Below, in pieces: positions 2,074 to 18,279 of a stretch of DNA of 64,000 nt. The stretch is from Bdellovibrionia bacterium (GTDB taxonomy: Bacteria; Bdellovibrionota; Bdellovibrionia; Bdellovibrionales; JAGQZY01): contig JAUICP010000003.1 of the NCBI GenBank assembly GCA_030427805.1, positions 515,758-579,757 on the forward strand, read 5' to 3'. Within the stretch, counting starts at the first letter, position 1; the number at the start of each line of letters is the position of its first letter. The position numbers were made by a program, and so were the translations under genes. The notes under the pieces were generated by a model that was not told where the DNA came from, searched no databases, and saw nothing but the letters and a program-made list of their open reading frames with translations.

Positions 2074-3306
2074 TTGGAATTACTTCCTAGCTTACTCTTT
2101 CTCATTGTCATGTCTCGCCTTCTCGGAAGGTTAGCTAAATCTCTTGGACAAAATGAGATTATTGGAGAAATTGCCGCCGGCTGTATCTTGGGGCCCATGA
2201 TTTTTGGCCTCGTTTCAATTACACCCGAACTTAAAGGTGTTGTTGAATTGGGGATATTCCTTTTGATTTTCAATGCCGGACTTGAAATCGAATTCCACGA
2301 AATTGTCGATGCCATTAAAGGAAAAGCCATTGGTTCGGCCATTGTCGGTTTTCTTGTACCACTTGTTTCTGGAATATTTCTTTGTTTGCAGTTCGATATG
2401 AGCCTGGCTTCGTCCACTGTGGTTGGACTTTGTTTGGCTATTACAGCACTGCCAGTGGTCATCCGCCTCCTATCGGCAAATAATCTCATAGACACTAAAT
2501 TCGGCCACAATGTTCTTGGGGCGGCAGTGATTATCGATATTCTCGCACTTCTCGTTCTCGGTGTGGTTTTTGAGTTGGGTGATGAAGTCGATTTTATGGG
2601 AATTCTCACAACTGTGGGAGTCACCGGAGCAAAAATTATCGGTTTCTTTATTGTGGTATTGATTGTGAATCGCTTTCTTCGAAAAGAGATTACAACGATC
2701 GAAAGGACCCGAAATATCGTCGATAAAATGTTTAAACTCTTGGGTGAGGAAGCTGTTTTTGGTATCGCAGTCCTCTTTGTCTTGCTCTTCAGCACGGTGA
2801 CAGAACATTTAGGACTTCACTTTATCATCGGCGCTTTCTTTGGCGGACTCTTGCTCAATAAAGATATTATTGGGGACGAGTTCTTCCCCCCACTCACTCG
2901 AACCGTCGACTCGGTGAGCTCAGGCTTTCTAACACCCGTATTTTTTGCCTTTATCGGTCTTCAATTAAGTACGGAAGCCTTCAATAATTTGAGCTTTCTC
3001 GCAGCTGTTTTTGCCCTAGCCTTCATCTCTAAGTTCGTTGGTGGCTACATTGGCACGCGAATTATGGGAGTGAGTCACCGAGCTAGTAAAAAAATGGGAA
3101 TCTTCCTCAATGCCCGAGGGGTTCTCGATCTCGTTATTGCCGACATCGCATTTGACCGAGGCTACATCGAAAGAGATGTATTCTCTATACTTGTAATCAT
3201 TGGTATCTCATCAACAATACTCACACCATTGTTTTACAAAATGTTATCTCGCGATAATGAGCCGATTGATACCGCAGACTCCGGCCCTGCTGTTACAAAT
3301 TCATAA
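2074..3306 (+). CDS. cation:proton antiporter (Na+/H+ exchanger, Kef-like family)
   Basis: 410 aa polytopic membrane protein. The N-terminus LLGRLAKSLGQNEIIGEIAAGCILGP is typical of the Na_H exchanger family. TTG start with AAGGA 6 nt upstream. Confidence 0.87.
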   Translation: MELLPSLLFLIVMSRLLGRLAKSLGQNEIIGEIAAGCILGPMIFGLVSITPELKGVVELGIFLLIFNAGLEIEFHEIVDAIKGKAIGSAIVGFLVPLVSGIFLCLQFDMSLASSTVVGLCLAITALPVVIRLLSANNLIDTKFGHNVLGAAVIIDILALLVLGVVFELGDEVDFMGILTTVGVTGAKIIGFFIVVLIVNRFLRKEITTIERTRNIVDKMFKLLGEEAVFGIAVLFVLLFSTVTEHLGLHFIIGAFFGGLLLNKDIIGDEFFPPLTRTVDSVSSGFLTPVFFAFIGLQLSTEAFNNLSFLAAVFALAFISKFVGGYIGTRIMGVSHRASKKMGIFLNARGVLDLVIADIAFDRGYIERDVFSILVIIGISSTILTPLFYKMLSRDNEPIDTADSGPAVTNS

Positions 3307-3336: not shown

Positions 3337-4614
3337 ATGAATCAAGATATTCATCTCGTCATTGATTTTGGTACTACAAACTCTCTTGTCGCCTATGCCG
3401 ACTCTAAGGGAGCCCATGAACCCATTCATATCCCCGGACAAACAGAAGGCACACCCGTCGTTCGCAGTCTTCTCTATTTTCAAGAAGATCATGAGCCGGT
3501 CTTTGGCATCGAGGCACAGAGGCTATTTGTAGCTAACAATTACGAGGGGAGACTTCTTCGTTCGGTTAAAAAGTTTCTCGCCCAAGAGAGCTTCAAAGGA
3601 ACTCAAATTGGTCAAAAGTTTTATCGCGTCGAAGACATCCTTGGTGCCTTTTTAAAATACCTTAAAACAGGCGCTGAAAAGGTCTTAGAGAAAAGTGTCG
3701 ACCAGGTGGTTCTCGGGCGACCAGCCCGATTTTCTCCCAGCGAAAAAGGGGACCAATTAGCCCACGACAGACTTTTAAAGGCTGCTCAATTCGCTGGTTT
3801 TAAAGAAATTGATTTCTTACAAGAACCTCTCGCTGCGGCTCAAAACTACAAAAAACAGCTCAATGGTGAAAAATTAGTAGCCGTGGTTGACCTCGGTGGT
3901 GGTACTTCTGATTTTACAATCATCAAGCTTTCTGGAAAAACCTTTAAGGCAGAAGATGTTTTAGCGGTAAACGGAATTAATATCGCTGGGGATGTTCTCG
4001 ACGGTAGTATTATGAAAAACCTAGTGGCGCCCGAGTTTGGGAGTGAGGTCACTTATAAACTCCCCATGTCAGATAATATTTTACAGATGCCTCCATTGGT
4101 AAAAGATAAACTTCTCTCTCCACCTGATATTGCTTTTCTTAAAGCTTCTGACATTCAGGATTTTATTGATTCCATTGAACGTTCACTCACCGACGAACGG
4201 GAGCAGAAGAAACTCGACCGACTGAGAGTTCTCGTTGAGGACAATCTCGGTTTTGATCTTTTCGAGCGAATCGAAAAATCGAAGGTCGATGTCTGTGTCA
4301 ATAACCAAGCCCAATTTCAATTTGACTATCCGGAGCTGGAAATGAAAAAAGACTACGCCCTTTCGCAATTCGAAGACTGGTCAAAAAACAAAGTGGACCA
4401 GATCTTTGCTTGTTTTGATGAGACTTTTAGAATGGCCGGCGTTTCTAACTCCGATATTGAGGAGGTCTGCATCACCGGAGGTACCAGCCAGGTTCCCATT
4501 TTTAAAAAGCGCCTCTCCCAGTTATTTGCCGAAGATGTTCTTAATACCAACGAACACTTCCAATCGGTCACCCGAGGGATCGCCGTCTATGCCCATGAAA
4601 AGTATTACGCTTAG
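3337..4614 (+). CDS. Hsp70-family actin-like ATPase lacking a substrate-binding domain (YegD-like)
   Basis: IDFGTTNS phosphate-1 motif, DLGGGTSDFT phosphate-2 motif, GGTSQVP adenosine motif. At 425 aa it covers only the nucleotide-binding domain. Confidence 0.85.
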   Translation: MNQDIHLVIDFGTTNSLVAYADSKGAHEPIHIPGQTEGTPVVRSLLYFQEDHEPVFGIEAQRLFVANNYEGRLLRSVKKFLAQESFKGTQIGQKFYRVEDILGAFLKYLKTGAEKVLEKSVDQVVLGRPARFSPSEKGDQLAHDRLLKAAQFAGFKEIDFLQEPLAAAQNYKKQLNGEKLVAVVDLGGGTSDFTIIKLSGKTFKAEDVLAVNGINIAGDVLDGSIMKNLVAPEFGSEVTYKLPMSDNILQMPPLVKDKLLSPPDIAFLKASDIQDFIDSIERSLTDEREQKKLDRLRVLVEDNLGFDLFERIEKSKVDVCVNNQAQFQFDYPELEMKKDYALSQFEDWSKNKVDQIFACFDETFRMAGVSNSDIEEVCITGGTSQVPIFKKRLSQLFAEDVLNTNEHFQSVTRGIAVYAHEKYYA

Positions 4615-4749: not shown

Positions 4750-5034
4750 ATGAAGACGAAACGAATCAGCTTAATGATTGGCGAAGATCAACATGAACGC
4801 CTCCTGCAATCGGGAGCTAATGTCAGTGGCCTGATTCGGGACCTCATAGAGGACCACCTCAGCGACCATAAAATCACACTTGCAGTCAGTGAAGAGACCG
4901 CAGATATCTACAATCGCATTGTTTCAAATACTGGGAGTACAGACGAAGATATTGAACCTTACCTGAAAAGAAGTCTCAAAGAGATGCTTGGCGATCGAAT
5001 CAAAGCCATGACTAAACTGCACAAATCTCTTTAG
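4750..5034 (+). CDS. ribbon-helix-helix (CopG/Arc-like) DNA-binding protein
   Basis: N-terminal KRISLMIGEDQHERLLQSGANVSGLIRDLIEDHL fits a beta-strand then helix-helix RHH pattern. GAGGG RBS lies 6 nt upstream of the ATG. Confidence 0.55.
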   Translation: MKTKRISLMIGEDQHERLLQSGANVSGLIRDLIEDHLSDHKITLAVSEETADIYNRIVSNTGSTDEDIEPYLKRSLKEMLGDRIKAMTKLHKSL

Positions 5035-8538: not shown

Positions 8539-9594
8539 ATGATATCGAGTGGGTTCAACTCAAGACGGCGATTTTTCGCTTTTATATTTATACTCATTTT
8601 GCCCTTAATCCTTCCCTGGGTAATAGAGCTACTCTACCTTGGCAACTTGAGATCCAGCTATGTTCAATTTTCAAATTTTTCCGGATCCTATAATGTCTAC
8701 CATCAAGTAATAGAGTCGCCAAAGAAGAGTCAAATTCTCATATTTGGCAATTCCGGTGGACTCTCTGCCATAGATCCAATCTACTTAGAACCTCTCTTCA
8801 AAAACGATTTAAATGAAGATGTCGAAGTAAGAAATATTTCCGTAACTGGAGATTCAGTAGCCCTTCCCTACCTCATCCTGGAAGATCTCATAAAAAAAAA
8901 CAAGAAACCCGAGTTGTTTATCTACCAGTTACCTGGCAATGAATCTCAATTCTATCATCCCTCTTCTAGGATATTATTCAAATTAACAGAGCACTACCGT
9001 CTCCTCTTGGAGGGTACAATTGACCTACAAACATTCGCTAAATTTTATGCGGTTAAAGCACTCGATTCAATGAGTGCTCTCCTCCATTTAATTCTCAATT
9101 GGGACGTCAGACTCACCAAAGAATTTATACAAGATTCGAAGACTAATAATGGAGCCAAATTCTACAAGGAAGTTCCACTCACAGAAAGCAATTACGACGT
9201 GGCCCCTAATGACCAGTATCCAGATCGTTCCCTTCTTTTTAAGGCTGCTTATAAATATACAAATGATCAACTGATTTGGTACAAGCTTCTTGAAAAATTG
9301 GCCGCAGAAAACCAGGTCCGCCTTGTTTACATGCTTTTTCCGTACAAGAGAAAAGGCTACCAAGAAAACAAATTTAACATCGCTCTCAATTTTGACTCTG
9401 TATTCAAAGAAAATATTCACCTTATGGGAATTACACGAAGTCAATTCGAATCGAGCCTTACGAAAGAGCAAATTAAAGATTTCGACGGTGATCCACACCA
9501 TTTTGGCCGAGATATTTCAATTCTACACTCTAAATGGCTTTACCCACAGATGCTACGACATCTAAAAGAGACTAGAGGCAAAAATGAAGAATAA
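8539..9594 (+). CDS. N-terminally membrane-anchored SGNH/DltD/AlgJ-like putative extracytoplasmic acyltransferase
   Basis: One N-terminal TM helix (FFAFIFILILPLILPWVIELL). ILIFGNSGG gives a GxS block with Ser72. The C-terminal FDGDPHHF gives Asp318-x-His320, like SGNH block V. It sits directly upstream of the microprotein and MBOAT genes. The fold assignment is not verified. Confidence 0.5.
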   Translation: MISSGFNSRRRFFAFIFILILPLILPWVIELLYLGNLRSSYVQFSNFSGSYNVYHQVIESPKKSQILIFGNSGGLSAIDPIYLEPLFKNDLNEDVEVRNISVTGDSVALPYLILEDLIKKNKKPELFIYQLPGNESQFYHPSSRILFKLTEHYRLLLEGTIDLQTFAKFYAVKALDSMSALLHLILNWDVRLTKEFIQDSKTNNGAKFYKEVPLTESNYDVAPNDQYPDRSLLFKAAYKYTNDQLIWYKLLEKLAAENQVRLVYMLFPYKRKGYQENKFNIALNFDSVFKENIHLMGITRSQFESSLTKEQIKDFDGDPHHFGRDISILHSKWLYPQMLRHLKETRGKNEE

Positions 9595-9715
9595 CTTTAG
9601 AATGGATCCAAAACTCTTTTTGATTCTATTGAGCCTATCGCTCATTATTCTCTTTTTACTTATGCAAATGGAACCTTACCATTTTCAACCCAAGTTCATT
9701 TACGAGAGGTTCTAA
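9584..9715 (+). CDS. DltX-like transmembrane microprotein with C-terminal FIYERF acyl-shuttle-type motif (not in ORF track)
   Basis: My translation is MKNNFRMDPKLFLILLSLSLIILFLLMQMEPYHFQPKFIYERF*. It has a basic N-terminus, one TM helix and a C-terminal hexapeptide F-I-Y-E-R-F. The ATG overlaps the upstream gene by 11 nt. The TAA at 9713..9715 directly abuts the MBOAT TTG start at 9716. Confidence 0.6.
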   Translation: MKNNFRMDPKLFLILLSLSLIILFLLMQMEPYHFQPKFIYERF

Positions 9716-10918
9716 TTGCTGAGCACTCAAACCTTCATTTATCTGGGCTTTTATGGAATTTTCTTTATTTATTTGAGGAATTTCCACCCAAAGCTTAAGA
9801 GCATCTGGTGGGCCCTCATCAACTTGAGCTTTGTTATCTTTTGCTTCTCGAATATCGTGGTCACTCAATTTGAAAACCTGCATCTCGAAATAATAACGGC
9901 CTTAATTACCGACACGAGTTTTCACATTTTCTTTTTTGTGTTGTTTATTTCTTACTTGCTCATTTGGCTCGATGAGAAGTTCAGAAAGGATTTAGGCTTA
10001 GCCTATATAGCTCCAATACTCTTTCTAGTTATTGCTAAAACCTTACCAGAGTTTGCAATCGTTGGTGCCTCATACCTCAGTTTTAGGCTCCTTTACCTGC
10101 GATATGAGATCAGACATAAAGGCACGCCATTCCCCTCGCCTTCACAGTTTATTGAGTTCACATGTTTTCCTCTGACTTTTCCCATGGGCCCTATCTCGCC
10201 ATTGAGAGATCATTTAAATAACCACGAGAAAGATGAGGTAAAAAGCTCTACTTTTAATATATTAACTCGATTCCTATCGGGCTGTCTCAAACTCTTCTAT
10301 TTGAGCTTCATCCCCCTAATGGCCAGGTACCACCTCTATCCCGAGGGGATTCACTCTATATTTGGAATTGAAGACATTCTGCTCTATGGCTTTCTTTATT
10401 ATCTATACGTTTATATTAACTTTAGTGGCGCCGCCGATGCAATTATAGCGATCTCCCAACTCGGTCGCCTGAGAGTCGCTGAAAATTTTAACAATCCTCT
10501 TTCGGCATCAAATATTCAAGATTTCTGGATGAAATGGCATATGAGTTTAACAAACATAATTAGAGAACTCGTCTTTTCACCCCTTTACCTTGTACTAAAA
10601 CGAAAGGCTCCAAAGGCCAAATGGACGGCCTTATTTATTTCGAGCCTTCTACTTTTTTTGGCCGTTGGACTCTGGCATGGCATAAGCATTCCTTTTATAT
10701 TACTAGGCATTTACCATGGAATCGGTGTTTGCTTTTACTTTTTATACAAAGATTGGGCGAGCCGAAAAATTAAATTAGCTCGTAATAAAACTTACTACAA
10801 AATTTTGGCGATCCTAATTACACAGGCCTTTGTATCTTTTAGCTTTATATTTTTTGAAGCGAGCACCAATGATTTAAAGGTTCTATTTTATCGAATCTTT
10901 CTGGGGATAGAGCTTTAG
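9716..10918 (+). CDS. MBOAT family membrane-bound O-acyltransferase (DltB/AlgI-like)
   Basis: Polytopic protein. IQDFWMKWHMSLTNIIRELVFSPLY matches FWRRWHISLS-type motifs, and AVGLWHGISIPF carries the conserved catalytic His. TTG start. Confidence 0.88.
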   Translation: MLSTQTFIYLGFYGIFFIYLRNFHPKLKSIWWALINLSFVIFCFSNIVVTQFENLHLEIITALITDTSFHIFFFVLFISYLLIWLDEKFRKDLGLAYIAPILFLVIAKTLPEFAIVGASYLSFRLLYLRYEIRHKGTPFPSPSQFIEFTCFPLTFPMGPISPLRDHLNNHEKDEVKSSTFNILTRFLSGCLKLFYLSFIPLMARYHLYPEGIHSIFGIEDILLYGFLYYLYVYINFSGAADAIIAISQLGRLRVAENFNNPLSASNIQDFWMKWHMSLTNIIRELVFSPLYLVLKRKAPKAKWTALFISSLLLFLAVGLWHGISIPFILLGIYHGIGVCFYFLYKDWASRKIKLARNKTYYKILAILITQAFVSFSFIFFEASTNDLKVLFYRIFLGIEL

Positions 10919-10938
10919 ATCTTTCTTAAGCATTCAAT

Positions 10939-11787
10939 TTAATTTTCCTTAGATTCACTTTCCAATAGAAATTGAAATACACTCTCCCAGTAGAGTTTTT
11001 GTTCGACTTGAATGTCATTGTGACCTTTATCAAACTCTACGAACTTTTTGGGTCCACGAAGTGCGGCGAATAACTTCTTACCGTGATGAATCGGTATGAG
11101 CTGGTCTCGCTTTCCGTGCATTATAAGGGCTGGCTGGTCATAGGACTTTAAGGTCTCTTCGGACCTGTATTTGTTTTCGATGAGAAATTCAGGCACACGA
11201 AACAATTCATAGGCTCTTTCTACTAAGCTAGAAAACGAAGATTCAATGATCAAGTGAGTGGATTTGCGAAATTGGGAGAGGTGGATTATAACTCCACCTC
11301 CGATCGATCGCCCGTGAAAAACGATGCGATCCTGTTCCCCTTTGACCTTAATCAATTTATCGTAGAAATACTTGAAGTCTTCACTTAGGTTCTCTTGACT
11401 CGGAGTCCCCCGTGACCTTCCATAACCACGGTATTCAACCAATAAGACATTTAAATTGAGATCCTTATAATAGGGAGAAAATGCGATCAGCCAGTCATCG
11501 ATAATTTCATTATTGCCGTGGGCAAAAATGACAGTTCCCCTGGATTCAGCTTCTTTCCTTGCCGGAATAAAAATAGCTTCGACGACCATTTCTCCGTCGA
11601 GGGGCTTTTCCCAGATTTCAAAGTTGATCTCTGCTTGTATTTGGTTGAGCTGAGTCTCACTCAATGCTATTCGCTGCCACACGCCTGGGTATACAAATCG
11701 GCTCTCAAAAAACATCATTCCTCCAAATACTGAAAGAAAGGCAACCAGTATAAGAACCAAAAGGGCAATTACGATCTTCTTTTTCAT
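10939..11787 (-). CDS. alpha/beta hydrolase, membrane anchored
   Basis: N-terminal TM helix, HGNNE oxyanion region, HGRSIGGG (GxSxG) nucleophile, C-terminal GHND His. Confidence 0.8.
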   Translation of the reverse strand: MKKKIVIALLVLILVAFLSVFGGMMFFESRFVYPGVWQRIALSETQLNQIQAEINFEIWEKPLDGEMVVEAIFIPARKEAESRGTVIFAHGNNEIIDDWLIAFSPYYKDLNLNVLLVEYRGYGRSRGTPSQENLSEDFKYFYDKLIKVKGEQDRIVFHGRSIGGGVIIHLSQFRKSTHLIIESSFSSLVERAYELFRVPEFLIENKYRSEETLKSYDQPALIMHGKRDQLIPIHHGKKLFAALRGPKKFVEFDKGHNDIQVEQKLYWESVFQFLLESESKEN

Positions 11788-12653
11788 TGTAATGCTTTTG
11801 CCGGACTTGCGATTTCAATTTCTCGGTAAATTTTGTCGTACTCATTAAAGAAGTTTTCAATAAGGTCCTTTTCAACAATGGATTTTTTCTCAAAAGGAAC
11901 GAGCATCCGAACGTGAAACTCGAGACTTTTAGAATCAAGAATTTCGTAGAATACTTTGGGCTCCATTTGTGGAATTCCCACACCCTCCTTGCGAAAAATT
12001 CGCTCCAACTGATTTTTAGCTTTCTCAAAATAGGGCTGACAGACAACGCGAGCGACTTCTTGTAGGAGTTCCTCAACTCTTCCAATTTGATGGGTCATTG
12101 GTAGCGGGATCTTAAAGACCATTAAATTGTACTCGTCATCTTTAGATTCAAGAATGACCGACTCGGTGAGATAGAGACTATTGGGCAGCTTTAAGACACG
12201 TCCAGTAAACTGATTTGATTTTTGACCAGGGCCGATTTCGAGAAGGGTCGTAATCAAAAAGTTATGGTCTGTTACCTTTCCTCTGAGACCGGCAATTTCA
12301 ATTCGATCGCCAATGACGAATAGCTTCGTACTGTACTTGAGCATTCCCCCCATAATACAGAGTATGAGTTCCTTGGTGGCGATGACAAAGGCCGCAAGGG
12401 CTGCAACGATAGAAAGAGCAAAAGCTCTCAGTTCTGATCCCCAAATAAAGACGAGCCCGAGCAGTAAAGTGAGTGTTAATACATTTTTTAGACCAACAAC
12501 ACGTTTTCTTCTGTCATCGGCATCGCGAAAGGTCCAACGACCCACAATTTTTAAAAGAATTCCCCGAATAATGAGAATACTTAGAATCAAAATGACCGTA
12601 GAAAGCAAATTCTGATAGTCGACCTGTAGATTTTCAAAATTAAATGAACCCAT
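11784..12653 (-). CDS. mechanosensitive ion channel (MscS family)
   Basis: Three N-terminal TM helices followed by FVIGDRIEIAGLRGKVTDHNFLITTLLE, the MscS beta-domain signature. Confidence 0.85.
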   Translation of the reverse strand: MGSFNFENLQVDYQNLLSTVILILSILIIRGILLKIVGRWTFRDADDRRKRVVGLKNVLTLTLLLGLVFIWGSELRAFALSIVAALAAFVIATKELILCIMGGMLKYSTKLFVIGDRIEIAGLRGKVTDHNFLITTLLEIGPGQKSNQFTGRVLKLPNSLYLTESVILESKDDEYNLMVFKIPLPMTHQIGRVEELLQEVARVVCQPYFEKAKNQLERIFRKEGVGIPQMEPKVFYEILDSKSLEFHVRMLVPFEKKSIVEKDLIENFFNEYDKIYREIEIASPAKALQ

Positions 12654-12665
12654 GGCCTATTTTAT

Positions 12666-12700
12666 TAGGTAGAAACTTCCTTTTGGTAGCGCACACGCGT
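12666..12700. repeat. left copy of a 35-bp inverted repeat pair
   Basis: taggtagaaacttccttttggtagcgcacacgcgt matches the reverse complement of 14104..14138 at 32 of 35 positions (hand alignment). Confidence 0.85.
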
Positions 12701-12707
12701 TAGTCAC

Positions 12708-13496
12708 TTACCTGATCGGGTTTTTTCCGCCGTAGAGAGAATACAAGAAGAAATGGTCACCGATTGACATGACATCGGTTTGGCGGATGTAACCCGTTTT
12801 GGGTGTAAATCCCTTTTTGTACATAACGACCTGACCGTTTCTAGAGCCGGACCGGGAGTCATAATGCATAATTGATTCGTAGTCGTAATAACTCAGCATA
12901 TGGCTGGTCGCCGAATTAGAAACTTTGACATAGGAGAATCGAGAAAGGAACTTCAGATTATTCCATAGTATGGCAATATGGTCATCACGATCGGGTCGAT
13001 TGTGATGGTGGGAAACCCCAAAAGCATGCATGAGTTCGTGCTGAATGGTCCGCTTTCTCCAGCACCGAATACTAAGAGTTTGTCTTCCTCCTTCTCGTCC
13101 CAATAGGGATGAACCGCAGGAACGACTATCAACAGATTTAAGAAAGACATAGTCTTTGTGGCTCGAGTTTTTTTCGACACACTGAATGTCAGCGAACTCC
13201 CCCATTTCCACACAAGCATCAACGACCATTTGCTCTTGCTGGGGTGTTAAGTCCTTTGAAAATTGGATAGGGAGAATTCCGTTGGGCCACAACTCCACGC
13301 GCTTTTCTTTAAATCCTTTTACTGTGGAGCCATTGTCGTTGAGAATATTTTCTTCTGGAAGGATCATATCTCCCACTAAAACATAGCCCCTTGGAATTTC
13401 TAGATTTTGATCGGAGGCACCCAATGCTGAGTCTGATTGAAGGGCGACCGAATAACTCGCGCTGAATAATATGAGTAGAAATGCCCACTTGATCAT
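12708..13496 (-). CDS. secreted astacin-family zinc metalloprotease (M12A)
   Basis: Signal peptide. HELMHAFGVSHHHNRPDRD matches the astacin signature HExxHxxGxxHxxxRxDRD, and SIMHY is the Met-turn. Confidence 0.9.
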   Translation of the reverse strand: MIKWAFLLILFSASYSVALQSDSALGASDQNLEIPRGYVLVGDMILPEENILNDNGSTVKGFKEKRVELWPNGILPIQFSKDLTPQQEQMVVDACVEMGEFADIQCVEKNSSHKDYVFLKSVDSRSCGSSLLGREGGRQTLSIRCWRKRTIQHELMHAFGVSHHHNRPDRDDHIAILWNNLKFLSRFSYVKVSNSATSHMLSYYDYESIMHYDSRSGSRNGQVVMYKKGFTPKTGYIRQTDVMSIGDHFFLYSLYGGKNPIR

Positions 13497-13600
13497 GACT
13501 AGCCCCCTCTTGGTTTATTAAAGACTACAAACCTGAAGGAGTGGCGCCACGACTGAACCTTTGCTTCTAGACCTATTCAGGACCGAGGGCGAGTAAGCTT

Positions 13601-13978
13601 TTACTGATTGCGGTAGCTGATTTTACAAGCGGTGAATGTGATGCGGTTGCCGTCTTCGTAGAAGAAACGAAGGCGCTTTTTACCGAGGCGAACACTAAAA
13701 AACTGCTTAATATCGGTGACACCCATGTCATAACCGTCGAGTTGAAATACAACGGAACTTGCACCCATCGAGATGAATCCCGTCGAATGCCCATGGTTTT
13801 CTCCAGAACGGTTTCCTACAGTCCAAGTGCTTACATCGAGTCCACCGTCGGCCGACTGAGTGATTTTGTAAGCTTCCGTGAAGTCATCGTACCTCTTACA
13901 CCAATCCCCAACAAATGAGTTTGAGGCAAAAGTTACTTGGCTGAATGATAAAACTAAAAAGAGCAATGAAACACGCAT
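13601..13978 (-). CDS. small secreted protein, unknown function
   Basis: The internal Met gives a signal peptide MRVSLLFLVLSFSQVTFA. I moved the start from 14014 to 13978. No recognisable motif. Confidence 0.5.
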   Translation of the reverse strand: MRVSLLFLVLSFSQVTFASNSFVGDWCKRYDDFTEAYKITQSADGGLDVSTWTVGNRSGENHGHSTGFISMGASSVVFQLDGYDMGVTDIKQFFSVRLGKKRLRFFYEDGNRITFTACKISYRNQ

Positions 13979-14103
13979 GACTCCGGTCCTTTCTGAAAGA
14001 ACGGAGATTACCACAATGGATTCCGATTGTCTGAGGTCAGGTAAAATAGGAAAGTTTTTTCTTAAACTCCAGTGAAATAAAGTAGGCCTGGCGGCAGATT
14101 TAG

Positions 14104-14138
14104 ACGCGGGAGCGCTACCAAAAGGAAGCTTCTACCTA
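14104..14138. repeat. right copy of the 35-bp inverted repeat pair
   Basis: acgcgggagcgctaccaaaaggaagcttctaccta. It overlaps the histidine kinase stop codon at 14136..14138. Confidence 0.85.
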
Positions 14139-15560
14139 GCCGGAGAGGGCGAAGGTGACTGAGCCTTCGAGATAGCGGGGTAAGCTCAGTTCAAAGACCG
14201 TATTTTCTGGTGATGAATCAAAGACCTTCACGTCGCCACCCAAGACACGGGCGTACTTTCTACAAAAGGAGAGGCCGAGGCCCGTTCCTCCGACCAGCTG
14301 ATCGGTGCGACTCCCCTGCACGAAGGGTTCAAATATTTTATCGAGCTCACCTTGATCGATACCCGGCCCTTTATTTGAGATTCTCACTCGGATATCCTCA
14401 GCCGTTAGTTCACACAAAACTTTTACTTTTGAATCCGGCTCAGCAAATTTAACAGCATTCCCCATAAGGTTTTTTAGAATTTGCTCACAAAGGGCTTTAT
14501 CCTGGACACAAATTTGATTTTCAAGATTTTCAGCCGGCACTTCAAGTTGAATGTTCTTCTCTTTTGCATCACTCAGAAACTCGTGACTCGATGATTGTAT
14601 AACATCGTTAAAAGAAAACTCGGCGGCTTGTGACTTGAAATCACCCTTTTGAATTTTAGTTAAATCAAGAAGACGATTGATGAGACTTGAGAGACGATCG
14701 TTAGCCTCTCTCATCAATCCTACGTTTTTTAAAAGTCGAGTCTTACTCGCCGGAATCGCATCGGGTTTTAACTTATTAATTCTCACCTCCATTAATTGGA
14801 GATGCCCTTTAATACCTTGCACCGGAGTTCGCAGCTCATGGGAAGTATTGGCAAAGAATTGGTTTTTGAGCACACTGGCCTGCTCGACCTCTTCTTTAGC
14901 AAGGAACAATTCATGGGTTCTCTCTTTAACCTTGGCCTCTAGGGTTTCATTAAACTCTTCGAGTTGCTGACTGTACTGTTCACTGAGGTTTTTCTGCATA
15001 AAAACGAGAATTGCAACGCCGACGGGCATTAGAATTCCATCTATAAGACGAATGGAATATTCCCATTCAATGTCGAGTAATGGAAACACCCCAGTATGTA
15101 CGAGATAATCCCCAATGGGATATCCTGCTAAGGTCATGGCTAGAGTTCCCCATCTCAGTTTTTTTTGGTCTTTTCTAAAACAAATTATGCTAAGTACAAC
15201 TCCAATAAAAAAGACTAAGTGAACATTAATAGTTCGGGCTGCTATAGCGTAGCCACGAATTCCAATAACGACAGTTGTTAGAATCGTAAAGAAGCGCGCA
15301 AATGTGTGTTTCTTTTTATAGTTCGCGAGTAGAACAATGGGACTCATCAAATAGACATCTGCCAAGACGAGGCCGATGGTCAGCCAGGAGTAGCCGAGTT
15401 CAATAAAATTGAAGATGTGAGATGTGCCCGCAAGTATTGCAAATAGGGCCAGGGAATTTGTGATCAATGTCAGTTGATTCTGATGGTGCAGGCGTTCGCC
15501 CTCGAAACCAATTCGAAAGGGAGTCGCAATGAATTTTAAGACTTTCCTGATATTGAACAT
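14136..15560 (-). CDS. membrane sensor histidine kinase
   Basis: About 6 N-terminal TM helices, a coiled-coil linker, H-box SHELRTPV, N-box LMGNAVKF, G-boxes NKGPGI and GGTGLGLS. Confidence 0.9.
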   Translation of the reverse strand: MFNIRKVLKFIATPFRIGFEGERLHHQNQLTLITNSLALFAILAGTSHIFNFIELGYSWLTIGLVLADVYLMSPIVLLANYKKKHTFARFFTILTTVVIGIRGYAIAARTINVHLVFFIGVVLSIICFRKDQKKLRWGTLAMTLAGYPIGDYLVHTGVFPLLDIEWEYSIRLIDGILMPVGVAILVFMQKNLSEQYSQQLEEFNETLEAKVKERTHELFLAKEEVEQASVLKNQFFANTSHELRTPVQGIKGHLQLMEVRINKLKPDAIPASKTRLLKNVGLMREANDRLSSLINRLLDLTKIQKGDFKSQAAEFSFNDVIQSSSHEFLSDAKEKNIQLEVPAENLENQICVQDKALCEQILKNLMGNAVKFAEPDSKVKVLCELTAEDIRVRISNKGPGIDQGELDKIFEPFVQGSRTDQLVGGTGLGLSFCRKYARVLGGDVKVFDSSPENTVFELSLPRYLEGSVTFALSG

Positions 15561-15782
15561 TCTTTCCTTCTAGTGCAAACGAACAACCTCTCTATATCGG
15601 CAATTACCCCCCATATATTGACATCTCCTAGACCCGATCTCGTTTCAAAATTAGACTTTAAAAGATTTCTCCCGCAAGCCATCCATCATCAGGTGAACCA
15701 AACTAGATTTCTTCCGCAAATTATTCAGATTTAAAAATCCAAGAGTCGAGAGCCGAATATTTTCAAAGAGAATATGTCATTC

Positions 15783-15895
15783 CGACGGTCTCGCTGGAGC
15801 CTCGCCCCTCGCCATCCATGGCTGCGAGGCTCTCCAGCTCGTGAACCCGCGGCTAGCGAAGTCCTCTTCGCGCTTACCCTCAAGCCCCTTCGTCG
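15783..15895. other. GC-rich structured element (candidate ncRNA or cis-regulatory RNA), strand unresolved
   Basis: Hand count gives 79 of 120 G+C over 15781..15900, with AT-rich flanks. A closing helix pairs CGACG (15783-87) with CGTCG (15891-95). A 13-bp bulged stem pairs 15793-15805 with 15824-15838. A 6-bp hairpin is GCGAAG-tcct-CTTCGC at 15856-15871. Confidence 0.35.
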
Positions 15896-15902
15896 ACTCA
15901 AA

Positions 15903-16027
15903 TTTTTCGAATCGATTTTCCCCTACAATGAGGCGACAAGGATTGAGCGACTGAGGCGTATAAGTGATACGTCGAAATGAGCGAAAGACGCAGTTAACGA
16001 AATTGTAGGGGAAAAGCGATCGAAAAA
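15903..16027. repeat. 125-nt long-stem hairpin / MITE-like element abutting the tRNA-His 3' end
   Basis: The arms are tttttcgaatcgattttcccctacaat (15903-15929) and attgtaggggaaaagcgatcgaaaaa (16002-16027). They are reverse complements apart from 1 indel and 1 mismatch. The spacer is 72 nt. Confidence 0.8.
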
Positions 16028-16104
16028 TGGGGCGACCGACGGGGCTTGAACCCGCGACAACCGGAATCACAATCCGGGGCTCTACCAACTGAGCTACGGC
16101 CGCC
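16028..16104 (-). tRNA. tRNA-His (GTG anticodon), CCA encoded
   Basis: The reverse complement is GGCGGCCGTAGCTCAGTTGGTAGAGCCCCGGATTGTGATTCCGGTTGTCGCGGGTTCAAGCCCCGTCGGTCGCCCCA. It shows a cloverleaf, anticodon loop TTGTGAT, T-loop TTCAAGC, and the extra 5' G(-1) opposite C73 that is diagnostic of tRNA-His. Confidence 0.95.
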
Positions 16105-16121
16105 ACAAACAAGAAAGCACT

Positions 16122-16150
16122 GTTATAAAGGCTTTAGGCGCAATTGACAA
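16122..16150 (-). promoter_or_regulatory. sigma-70-type promoter for tRNA-His
   Basis: The minus strand reads TTGTCA-N17-TATAAC. The -10 element ends 17 nt before the tRNA 5' end. Confidence 0.5.
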
Positions 16151-16190
16151 GCATCGACTTAATTCTTTTTTTGCTAGTATTTTCAGCATT

Positions 16191-17420
16191 TTATGGATCG
16201 CATGGAGCGATTTTTGGCCCGACGACGGAGCAGAGTACCTGGGTCGGGTCATTAAAGGGGGTGGGCTCGGCCCACTCACCGTTGGCGTTGCAGACTCTGC
16301 GAATGCAATTCACAGATTTCAACTCCGTAGAGCACCCCTTACCACCTGACGAGGCAGGTGCTCCCTCACAGGTCCACAGGCATTGTTTGAATTCACCGGG
16401 AGGATTCATACAAATCTTTTCGTTCTTCTTTTGCGCTTGCTCCGAGGCAAGGCTCCTTTTTACTTGGTTTGTGGAACTGGTTTCCCATTCAAGTTTATTG
16501 ATTTCGTCACTGCTCATTTTATAAACCGGAGTTAAGTAACCCTTCTCGGCCATCTCTTTGTATTCAGCCTCGGTAAAACCCGATTTTTTCAATGGCTTTG
16601 GCACGATAAAGGAAGCCTTCTCTCCTTTTTTAACAAAGCGGCCTTCTACTTGGGACAGTCCCGAAAGCTTCACATTTCCACGAATCGTCTTGACCGTAAA
16701 CTTCCACTCCTCATCGCCAGGGTAAAACTCGGTCACAAAATCGGTTCCCCGAACTCCGGCGACAGCGGCACCGGCTTTGACTTTAAATGAAGCTCCCTTA
16801 CTCCGATCATAGCCATCCACTTGTGAGCGCAAGCGCCCATACCACAGCATTAGGAGGGTCTTCTTTTCTTCCTCACCAGCATCGTGCCTAACAAATGTTA
16901 GTCTTGAATTCTGCGATAGAACGAGTTTGTTCTCCTTACTCTGAGAGGATGGCCCCCTCAAACTCAAGGCCCTGGTGTTCTTTGACAAGAGGACAACTGC
17001 CTTTGAATTTTTACCCGTGACAACAAGATCACCCTCTAAGAGACGAGTGCCCCGACGAATGCGATGGTCTCCATCAGAACGCTTCAATTGAACTTTTCCC
17101 CGAACGAGAAGAACTTTTCCGATGGGTCTAAAGCTTGATTTTTTGTTTTGTGCGACGATTTGCTGGGACTGCCTCGGCAGCTTTTTTTGAAACTGCGCCA
17201 TGCACTGCTTGTAATTTTTAACTTCGACGCATTGATATTTTTTGCAAGACTTTACGCGACGTCCACCATCACAGGGGGCTGTATAGAAGTCATAGTCCAC
17301 AGCCTGCTCACAAGGTTCACATACGATTTGTTCACAATCGCAAGATTGGGCTGAGGCTGAATTTGAAACGAGGCTCAAACCCAGTAGGACTAGTCCAATG
17401 ATGAAAAATCGAATAGACAC
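16191..17420 (-). CDS. secreted Cys-rich FecR-domain protein
   Basis: Signal peptide. GKVLLVRGKVQLKRSDGDHRIRRGTRLLEGDLVVTGKNSKAVVLL fits the FecR-domain pattern. Cys clusters sit at both ends. GTG start with AAGGAG 8 nt upstream. Confidence 0.7.
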   Translation of the reverse strand: MSIRFFIIGLVLLGLSLVSNSASAQSCDCEQIVCEPCEQAVDYDFYTAPCDGGRRVKSCKKYQCVEVKNYKQCMAQFQKKLPRQSQQIVAQNKKSSFRPIGKVLLVRGKVQLKRSDGDHRIRRGTRLLEGDLVVTGKNSKAVVLLSKNTRALSLRGPSSQSKENKLVLSQNSRLTFVRHDAGEEEKKTLLMLWYGRLRSQVDGYDRSKGASFKVKAGAAVAGVRGTDFVTEFYPGDEEWKFTVKTIRGNVKLSGLSQVEGRFVKKGEKASFIVPKPLKKSGFTEAEYKEMAEKGYLTPVYKMSSDEINKLEWETSSTNQVKRSLASEQAQKKNEKICMNPPGEFKQCLWTCEGAPASSGGKGCSTELKSVNCIRRVCNANGEWAEPTPFNDPTQVLCSVVGPKIAPCDP

Positions 17421-17487
17421 GCTAAGAACTCCTTAGGTTCTTATCGACTATTTACCTAATAAAATTATGTTTATTAGTTCCCTTGTT

Positions 17488-18279
17488 TCATTTTGAAATT
17501 GAATTAATCATTTCTTTATTTTGCTGATCCCAAATATCTTTGTGACCAAGCTCCCAAAGCTTCGCCCACTTTAAGAACACTGAGTATGAGGCTCCCACAC
17601 TGATAATGAATCCAGGGAGTCCATCCATAAAACCTCTCTTCCAAATATAGGTCTCGATGAATTTCGAAATGGGTTTGGTGATGAGTTTAAATCGACTGAA
17701 TGACTTTCCCTTTTTTTGCAGCTCTTCAGACTGCAAGTTAGAGTAACGATTATTTGTATGAATTTGAGAAAAGATATTTTCAAATGGAAAGTGAAGAATA
17801 TCCTTTGGGATTCTTAGTTTTCTTTCGGCCTCGACTCGTTCGTGAATAGTGGCATCGGACCAATTCGCCTTTTTTCGATTGAAAAATCGAAGCTGCCAAT
17901 CGGGATACCAACCTCCGTGGGAGATTTTTCTGCCCAAATAATAGGAGATCCGTGAGAACTCATAGGCCTCCATATCTTCAGATTGATTGGCGACCAAATC
18001 TTTGAGGTATTTCGAAAGTGGTGCTGAAAGACACTCATCAGCATCGAGTGAAAGAATCCAGTCATTCGAGCAAAGTTCAACTGCTCTTTTTTTCTGGGGA
18101 CCAAAGCCTCTCCACTCCTCATTAAAGACTCGCGCCCCTTCGGCTTCGGCCAGTTCTCGCGTTCGATCAGTACTTCCACTATCGAGAACGACAACCTCGT
18201 CCACCCAACTCGCCGAGCGAATACAATTTACAATATGGGACTCTTCGTTAAGACAAATTATGGCAAGACTGACCTTCAT
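17488..18279 (-). CDS. family 2 glycosyltransferase (LPS-core type)
   Basis: VSLAIICLNEE...VVVLDSGSTDRT...SLDADE are GT-A fold motifs including DxD. I moved the start to the internal Met at 18279, which has a GGGGAG RBS. Confidence 0.8.
   Translation of the reverse strand: MKVSLAIICLNEESHIVNCIRSASWVDEVVVLDSGSTDRTRELAEAEGARVFNEEWRGFGPQKKRAVELCSNDWILSLDADECLSAPLSKYLKDLVANQSEDMEAYEFSRISYYLGRKISHGGWYPDWQLRFFNRKKANWSDATIHERVEAERKLRIPKDILHFPFENIFSQIHTNNRYSNLQSEELQKKGKSFSRFKLITKPISKFIETYIWKRGFMDGLPGFIISVGASYSVFLKWAKLWELGHKDIWDQQNKEMINSISK

Follow-up and report, generated by a model that had tools for sequence, protein, structure and literature searches.

Inverted 35-nt arms around an astacin protease gene pair in a Bdellovibrionia genome: probably two separate insertions of a dispersed REP/RAYT-type repeat

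A 64,000-nt stretch of a Bdellovibrionia bacterium genome (GCA_030427805.1, contig JAUICP010000003.1, positions 515,758 to 579,757, forward strand; referred to here as the window) contains two 35-nt inverted repeat arms that bracket a gene pair, one gene encoding an astacin metalloprotease and the other a small secreted protein. The closest described systems are those in which repetitive extragenic palindromes (REPs) are associated with a REP-associated tyrosine transposase (RAYT). These are the REPtrons, such as the E. coli REP/BIME system with TnpA-REP and the REPs and REPINs of Pseudomonas and Stenotrophomonas (PMC2817692, PMC3733652, PMC8266576, PMC5581495). A GT(A/G)G tetranucleotide at the end of the unit is part of the definition of a REP (PMC3733652, PMC2817692). 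GTAG REPs have been reported with their heads at stop codons (PMC3733652), and very short REP stems of 5 bp are known in Marinomonas (PMC8266576). The TIRtrons, or TIRYTs (Di Nocera et al. [quoted passage not shown] They share with the present repeat the nonpalindromic inverted borders of 24 to 38 nt and a moderate number of further copies that stand alone, as dimers, or in groups. Neither Bdellovibrio nor Bdellovibrionia is mentioned in the cited REP surveys.

The repeat in the window most likely belongs to the REP/RAYT kind, most of whose defining features it displays. It is a short extragenic repeat (about 38 nt) whose copies number in the tens and begin with a GTAG head. It frequently forms inverted doublets, is placed downstream of genes, and supplies TAG stop codons with its head. 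In addition, a Y1/HUH transposase gene lies between two inverted copies, and its product aligns to TnpA-REP across the HUH and tyrosine motifs. The repeat fits the TIR families of Di Nocera et al. equally well, save for its GTAG head; being GTAG-headed and REP-like at stop codons, it stands between the two classes. We consider it probable that the bracket in the window represents two independent insertions of this repeat at gene ends. The two repeat units that contain the arms are as follows:

12665..12702, plus strand: left repeat unit (profile score, 46.5 bits), containing the arm at 12666-12700
14102..14138, minus strand: right repeat unit (profile score, 47.6 bits), containing the arm at 14104-14138

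An initial annotation of this DNA had described 35-bp inverted repeats identical at 32 positions, a match said to be far beyond chance. Both points were borne out. A repeat finder returned two arms of 35 nt with 91% complementarity (32/35) and 1403 nt between them. A degenerate 35-mer, with up to 3 mismatches allowed, matched the two arms only in the 64 kb and gave no match in 100 dinucleotide-preserving shuffles, by which a chance match is ruled out. Of the three mismatches (arm positions 10, 28, and 30), two fall inside a 4-nt block that is variable throughout the repeat family. In the left unit, the outer GTAG head occupies 12669-12672 and a second GTAG occupies 12686-12689, followed by the variable block ACAC (12693-12696) and the tail GCGTTA (12697-12702). 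The genes around this unit run in the opposite sense; 5 nt separate its tail from the astacin stop codon (7 nt when counted from the last base of the arm), and 12 nt separate its head from the start codon of a gene for an MscS-like channel. The right unit reads TAGGTAGAAGCTTCCTTTTGGTAGCGCTCCCGCGTCT on the minus strand, with GTAG heads at 14132-14135 and 14115-14118 and the variable block TCCC at 14108-14111. Its first TAG, at 14136-14138, is the stop codon of a histidine kinase gene. The gene context given initially was thus accurate: the arms enclose the astacin and small secreted-protein genes, the right arm overlaps the kinase stop codon, and the left arm lies just upstream of the MscS start. 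It also held that no target-site duplication is apparent, as the outer flanks, ...CCTATTTTAT (ending in TTTTAT) and GCCGGAGAGG... (starting with GCCGGA), share no direct repeat.

Species-representative genomes were scanned once with the 21-nt core GAARCTTCCTTTTGGTAGCGC, and 17 stretches were returned. Sixteen of these derive from one Bdellovibrionia metagenome-assembled genome (MAG; JAUHWN01), which contains 18 exact matches on 15 contigs. Other copies of the 35-mer, which the initial annotation had left to be sought in further genomes, are therefore present and dispersed. At a housekeeping locus, the flanking genes of this MAG and of the window genome are 97 to 98.5% identical in nucleotides, by which the two genomes are judged conspecific. 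The seventeenth stretch, from a Flavobacteriaceae MAG (L005), was set aside, having only the 21-mer in common and unrelated flanks. A profile built from these copies found 25 copies in the MAG stretches and the 2 in the window; copy counts refer to these stretches and the window. The family consensus of about 38 nt is (T)AGGTAGAAGCTTCCTTTTGGTAGCGC-NNNN-GCGTYA, in which four consecutive positions are freely variable, and the unit has sharp edges with unrelated flanks. The outer GTAG retains its TAG in every copy and its G in 26 of 27; the internal second GTAG is conserved in 26 of 27. A diverged copy at L014 6219-6255 (GGTAGAAGGTTCCATTTGGTAGCACATCTGCATCA) carries CCATTTGG in place of CCTTTTGG and may represent a second subfamily. 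A metagenome scan with a degenerate 22-mer yielded two weak matches (L019 and L020) that share the variant core of this copy. They cover the core only, have no clear gene-end context, and are probably chance or very distant matches. A tRNA-derived origin of the TTGGTAGCGC part found no support.

The position of the repeat relative to genes is far from random. For 16 of the 27 copies, a same-sense open reading frame (ORF) of at least 70 codons ends on or directly beside the head, its stop codon lying within or just before AGGTAG. Seven of these stops are TAG before GTAG, another seven are TAG inside GTAG, and the remaining two are TAA just upstream. For a random position and strand the chance rate of this test is 1.26%, which gives a binomial p of ~5e-24. 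Filled and unfilled states could be compared for two genes. The astacin gene ends with AGG TAA in the window and with AGG TAG-AAGG... in the MAG, its protein length being kept, and the lpxH-like protein has 250 aa in both genomes. Judged from these unchanged protein lengths, the head's TAG lands on the native stop codon. Occupancy by the repeat is polymorphic within the species: copies lie on the stop codons of the lpxH-like gene and recN in the MAG, and both are lacking in the window's own genome (L033, same sample).

Three arrangements of copies were observed, namely, single units, close convergent doublets, and wider convergent pairs. In the close doublets (L002, L007, L011, and L018), the heads point outward, with 12 to 80 nt between the units, while the wider convergent pairs span 1.4 kb in the window, 0.9 kb in L004, and 1.25 kb in L016. 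No divergent pair within 2 kb was found among the profile matches. Doublets between convergent genes fold as long hairpins (-29 to -33 kcal/mol; z of -7 to -8), and an Rfam search of the doublet returned only generic hairpin matches far below threshold. At L007 2919-3030, where two genes converge, the units of a doublet lie on either side of an ordinary intrinsic-terminator hairpin (AAAAAAAGCCTTCC...GGAAGGCTTTTTT). This arrangement suggests that at least some doublets are two separate insertions at convergent stops and not preformed. The doublets at L011 908-993 and L018 2254-2336 have the same gap of ~12 nt with unrelated spacer sequences.

Location at stop codons, mostly in sense orientation, could also be expected of a repeat that is mainly a host cis-element. 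Such an element would act after stop codons as a stabilizer of mRNA 3' ends, a terminator, or a site for a host protein, and the two arms in the window would cooperate, perhaps by base pairing within a polycistronic RNA so that the protease message is set apart. The stable folding of the doublets between convergent genes agrees with this, and near stop codons, E. coli REPs are known to influence the stability and translation of mRNA. However, a single unit has no significant structure, and the left arm is antisense. Promoter and intrinsic terminator scans gave nothing at the arms, sites being no more numerous than in shuffles. Rfam gave no family for the window at gathering thresholds and none for 12500-14300 with E values of up to 1. 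At the same genes, a copy may be present in one conspecific genome and absent from another, unlike a required regulatory site, and the association with a transposase accounts for the family without any host function. We therefore regard a primary host function as quite unlikely, although a cis-regulatory role could exist as a secondary effect.

The transposase gene is located next to a repeat copy in the MAG. At L008 2090-2722, an ORF of 210 aa contains HFH (HUH) and YKYLYRNP tyrosine motifs. The protein matched Pfam Y1_Tnp with 24.2 bits (cutoff, 23). Its sole single-stretch match among solved structures was E. coli TnpA-REP (4ER8; E = 3.4e-5), and this match spans both motifs. A designed repeat protein received a nominally better score in the structure search, with no stretch matched on its own, and no IS608 or ISDra2 transposase chain was hit among solved structures with E values of up to 1. 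Inverted copies of the repeat lie on both sides of the gene, at L008 1980-2016 (plus strand) and 2704-2733 (minus strand), the contig ending inside the second copy. In a second conspecific assembly, GCA_041259675.1, the transposase gene (L027 3612-4244) has complete inverted arms at 3500-3523 and 4246-4269 (24 nt, 96% complementary). The transposase family is common in Bdellovibrio and its relatives, with 483 proteins at an E value of 1e-5 or below, and JGI names several of them RayT. The homologue of Pseudobdellovibrio exovorus (CP003537.1) has its own 29-nt inverted repeat, AGGTAGGCCGTACCTTATCCGGAAATATA (AGGTAGGCCGTACC...), at L028 2908-2936 and 3637-3665 (97% complementary), and the homologue of another relative is flanked by its own inverted repeat AGGTACCTTCTTC. 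An AGGTA(G) head is common to the repeats that flank the homologues, the remainder being different. The P. exovorus repeat has the head GTAGGCCG, which is similar to REP heads of enterobacteria given in PMC2817692.

By analogy with HUH Y1 enzymes and REPs (PMC2817692, PMC3733652, PMC8266576), a RAYT-like single-strand-DNA transposase (HUH/Tyr, Y1) would spread gene-less copies of the repeat in trans. Transposition would proceed by single-strand cutting and joining without target duplication, with GTAG as a recognition or guide element, and copies would land beside short (G)TAG-like targets. Selection may then retain the copies that lie on or just after stop codons. In the window, the right arm would have hit the kinase stop codon and the left arm would have landed just after that of the astacin gene. 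If these were separate events, it follows that the bracket round the protease genes would have arisen as a by-product rather than as a unit that moves or inverts. The suggestion, made initially, that the arms are a shared protein-binding site may be correct, as both are presumably bound by the RAYT-like transposase. Pairing of RNA or DNA over 35 bp across 1.4 kb, or a recombination hot spot, is possible as a side effect.

Comparison of the locus among related genomes bears directly on whether the arms delivered the genes between them. The four genes concerned, all on the minus strand, are as follows:

11784..12653, minus strand: MscS-like channel (Pfam MS_channel_2nd, 28 bits), directly downstream of the left unit
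12708..13496, minus strand: astacin-family metalloprotease, 262 aa (Pfam PF01400, 113.9 bits), enclosed by the units and not part of the repeat element
13601..13978, minus strand: small signal-peptide protein, 125 aa in the public assembly (mechanical ORF to 14014), enclosed by the units
14136..15560, minus strand: histidine kinase (Pfam HisKA and HATPase_c), with a stop codon that is supplied by, or overlaps, the right unit

GCA_041259675.1 (L021), whose astacin is 97% identical, has the same layout of small gene, astacin, repeat, MscS, and hydrolase as the window, and its orthologue of the left unit (L021 1235-1272) has the same ACAC block. A more distant relative, sampled twice (L022 and L023), encodes an astacin of 61% identity. 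The small protein is 57% identical over 123 aa (E = 2e-52) to the neighbor of the astacin in L022. Gene order is kept in this relative (GT2, FecR, tRNA-His, small gene, astacin, MscS, and hydrolase), and two unrelated genes take the place of the kinase. Its locus lacks the kinase, and neither a profile match nor a bracketing inverted repeat is present there. The arms are nearly identical to the family consensus, while the enclosed genes have diverged to ~60%. Since a relative with 61% astacin identity keeps the order without the repeats, and since the arms are near consensus while the genes have diverged, the comparison shows that the order of small gene, astacin, and MscS is older than the repeats and that the arms came late to a gene pair already in place. 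In the MAG, the orthologue of the kinase and astacin region (L014) has an identical kinase-side copy (4796-4832). After its astacin gene, a diverged copy in direct orientation supplies the astacin stop codon, and homology to the window ends exactly there. The sequence beyond is unrelated to the window and includes a tandem duplication of ~50 nt (…CCCTCTTGAATCCCACTGAATCGGTTTCAGAAAAGATCG…) at L014 6280-6400, downstream of the MAG astacin gene. More distant astacin homologues (P0003, P0004, and P0007; 50 to 55% identity) were uninformative, lying in unrelated contexts without the small gene. GC content is 0.45 to 0.47 inside the bracket versus 0.41 to 0.43 outside, a difference too mild for import of the segment to be judged from composition.

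The proposal that the arms are terminal inverted repeats of a nonautonomous cargo element thus stands only in part. The repeat does form the inverted ends of a transposase unit and of gene-less copies, but delivery of the protease by it is not supported, in view of its dispersed occurrence, the relative's synteny without repeats, and the direct orientation of the MAG copy. Neither a second copy of the astacin cassette nor an empty site was found; instead of the empty sites anticipated in relatives, L022 and L023 have the cargo at the same site without arms, and L021 has the window layout. A dispersed repeat, together with relatives that carry the genes but lack the repeats, had been named in the initial annotation as the pattern that would contradict the cassette, and this is the pattern found with L022 and L023. 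Like miniature inverted-repeat transposable elements (MITEs) and composite cargo transposons, the 1.4-kb segment has near-identical inverted borders, and the close doublets are MITE-like. Unlike in these elements, there is no target-site duplication, the cargo is unrepeated and is found at the same site in a relative without repeats, and the arms also occur singly.

The window genome and the MAG also differ at the locus between the lpxH-like gene and recN. Its flanks are 97 to 98.5% identical in nucleotides, and repeats bound the MAG version (L004) only. The genes in between (L033 10763-11629 and L004 5882-6733) are homologous and lie on opposite strands, with proteins that are 49% identical. 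The variable block coincides with the repeat-bounded block, and the last ~10 codons of both flanking genes have also diverged. The difference is more suggestive of an imported allele than of a simple flip or a transposition.

From this locus, a different view of the bracket can be taken, in which convergent pairs of RAYT-type repeats mark gene-sized cassettes, mostly secreted and of unknown function, that are exchanged, replaced, or inverted between strains. The arm-gene-arm layout of the transposase would be reused, and the astacin pair would be a cassette of this type that has become fixed at an old site. The repeat-bounded segment is indeed the differing segment between L004 and L033, inverted and with 49% protein identity between flanks of 97 to 98.5%. 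Moreover, all four wide pairs (the transposase gene at L027, the window, L004, and L016) have a sense copy upstream and an antisense copy 5 to 8 nt past the last stop codon or overlapping it, and the lack of divergent pairs within 2 kb among the profile matches points the same way. The three loads other than the transposase are all Pfam-less or secreted-type proteins. On the other hand, the astacin pair occupies the same place, from tRNA-His to MscS, in a relative without repeats; the MAG orthologue has its copy after the astacin gene in direct orientation; and there is no second cassette copy, target duplication, or empty site. The L004/L033 difference includes the diverged 3' ends of the flanking genes, which an imported allele fits better than transposition. 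Finally, the orientation bias is marginal (p ~0.05) and derives from three or four cases. Taken together, these observations make a cassette unlikely. If it were true, RAYT-type repeats would gain a role in moving or flipping genes that has so far not been shown for them.

The opposite orientations of the repeat-bounded gene in L004 and L033, and the inverted arms themselves, could further be attributed to a recombinase-driven invertible switch with the 35-bp arms as crossover sites, a possibility raised initially. This was contradicted by several results. No flipped segment was found in four assemblies (window, L014, L021, and L022/L023), all of which show one orientation. The absence of a recombinase gene nearby, already remarked upon in the initial annotation, was confirmed, with no recombinase, invertase, or tyrosine recombinase among the window ORFs from 9000 to 18000 (~5 kb around). 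Inversion would switch no obvious promoter, and the arms are generic members of a family present on 15 or more contigs. An invertible switch is accordingly very improbable.

It should be noted that several results weigh against two independent REP/RAYT-type insertions. The unit contains no convincing palindrome and would, on that count, fall outside the classical definition of a REP as an imperfect palindrome that forms a stem-loop. Single units folded no better than shuffles (z of 0.98 to -0.27 as DNA and 0.59 to -0.08 as RNA). The only candidate stem, of 6 bp around the variable block (GCGC-N4-GCGT), was 80% pairable but showed 0 compensatory changes and was not above shuffles; with no covariation, this unit hairpin found no support. 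The only NCBIfam match of the transposase was REP_Tyr_transpos, with 66 bits against a cutoff of 80. A homologue of the transposase was found in the MAG and GCA_041259675.1 and neither in the 64-kb window nor in L033. The left arm in the window lies on no stop codon. Finally, all four wide pairs (transposase gene, window, L004, and L016) are alike in their convergent topology and in their polarity with respect to the genes between the arms, and the bracket may be less accidental than assumed. Independent insertion at gene ends nevertheless remains the explanation that we favor, at the level of confidence stated above.

Compared with described REP/RAYT systems, the unit is thus not a clear palindrome, with a stem of at most 4 to 6 bp and no covariation, and has two GTAG tags and a long invariant nonpalindromic 5' arm. 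The transposase scores below the NCBIfam RAYT cutoff, and the 18 exact cores counted in the MAG represent a modest copy number. Similarities to IS200/IS605 elements consist of the Y1 HUH fold family, the expected lack of target duplication, and a tetranucleotide beside the end as target or guide; the ends of IS200/IS605 are, however, same-strand hairpins and not inverted repeats. With its GTAG head and essentially nonpalindromic sequence, the unit bridges classical REPs and the TIR families of RAYT-like genes, and the pair of repeat and transposase is documented here in relatives of predatory bacteria (Bdellovibrionia). In annotation, the 35-mer should be entered as a repeat of the dispersed REP/RAYT type and should not be taken to border a protease island. 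Polymorphism within a species, combined with precise landing at stop codons, offers a usable natural system for the study of target choice.

Some further features of the surroundings were observed. An imperfect palindrome with 22-nt arms (CAAACCTGAAGGAGTGGCGCCA / TGGCGCCACGACTGAACCTTTG) is located between the small gene and the astacin gene (window 13528-13563) and is largely kept in the MAG orthologue. The window contains a tRNA-His gene at 16028-16103, and the region just downstream of it (15561-16103) differs among relatives. Downstream of tRNA-His, the window has the histidine kinase and L022 (2221-5000) has two unrelated genes. In the MAG (L014 1-3370), a tyrosine integrase gene at 1031-2284 (Phage_integrase, 61.9 bits) and a gene for an HTH_17 protein lie upstream of the kinase. 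The region downstream of tRNA-His looks like an integration hot spot.

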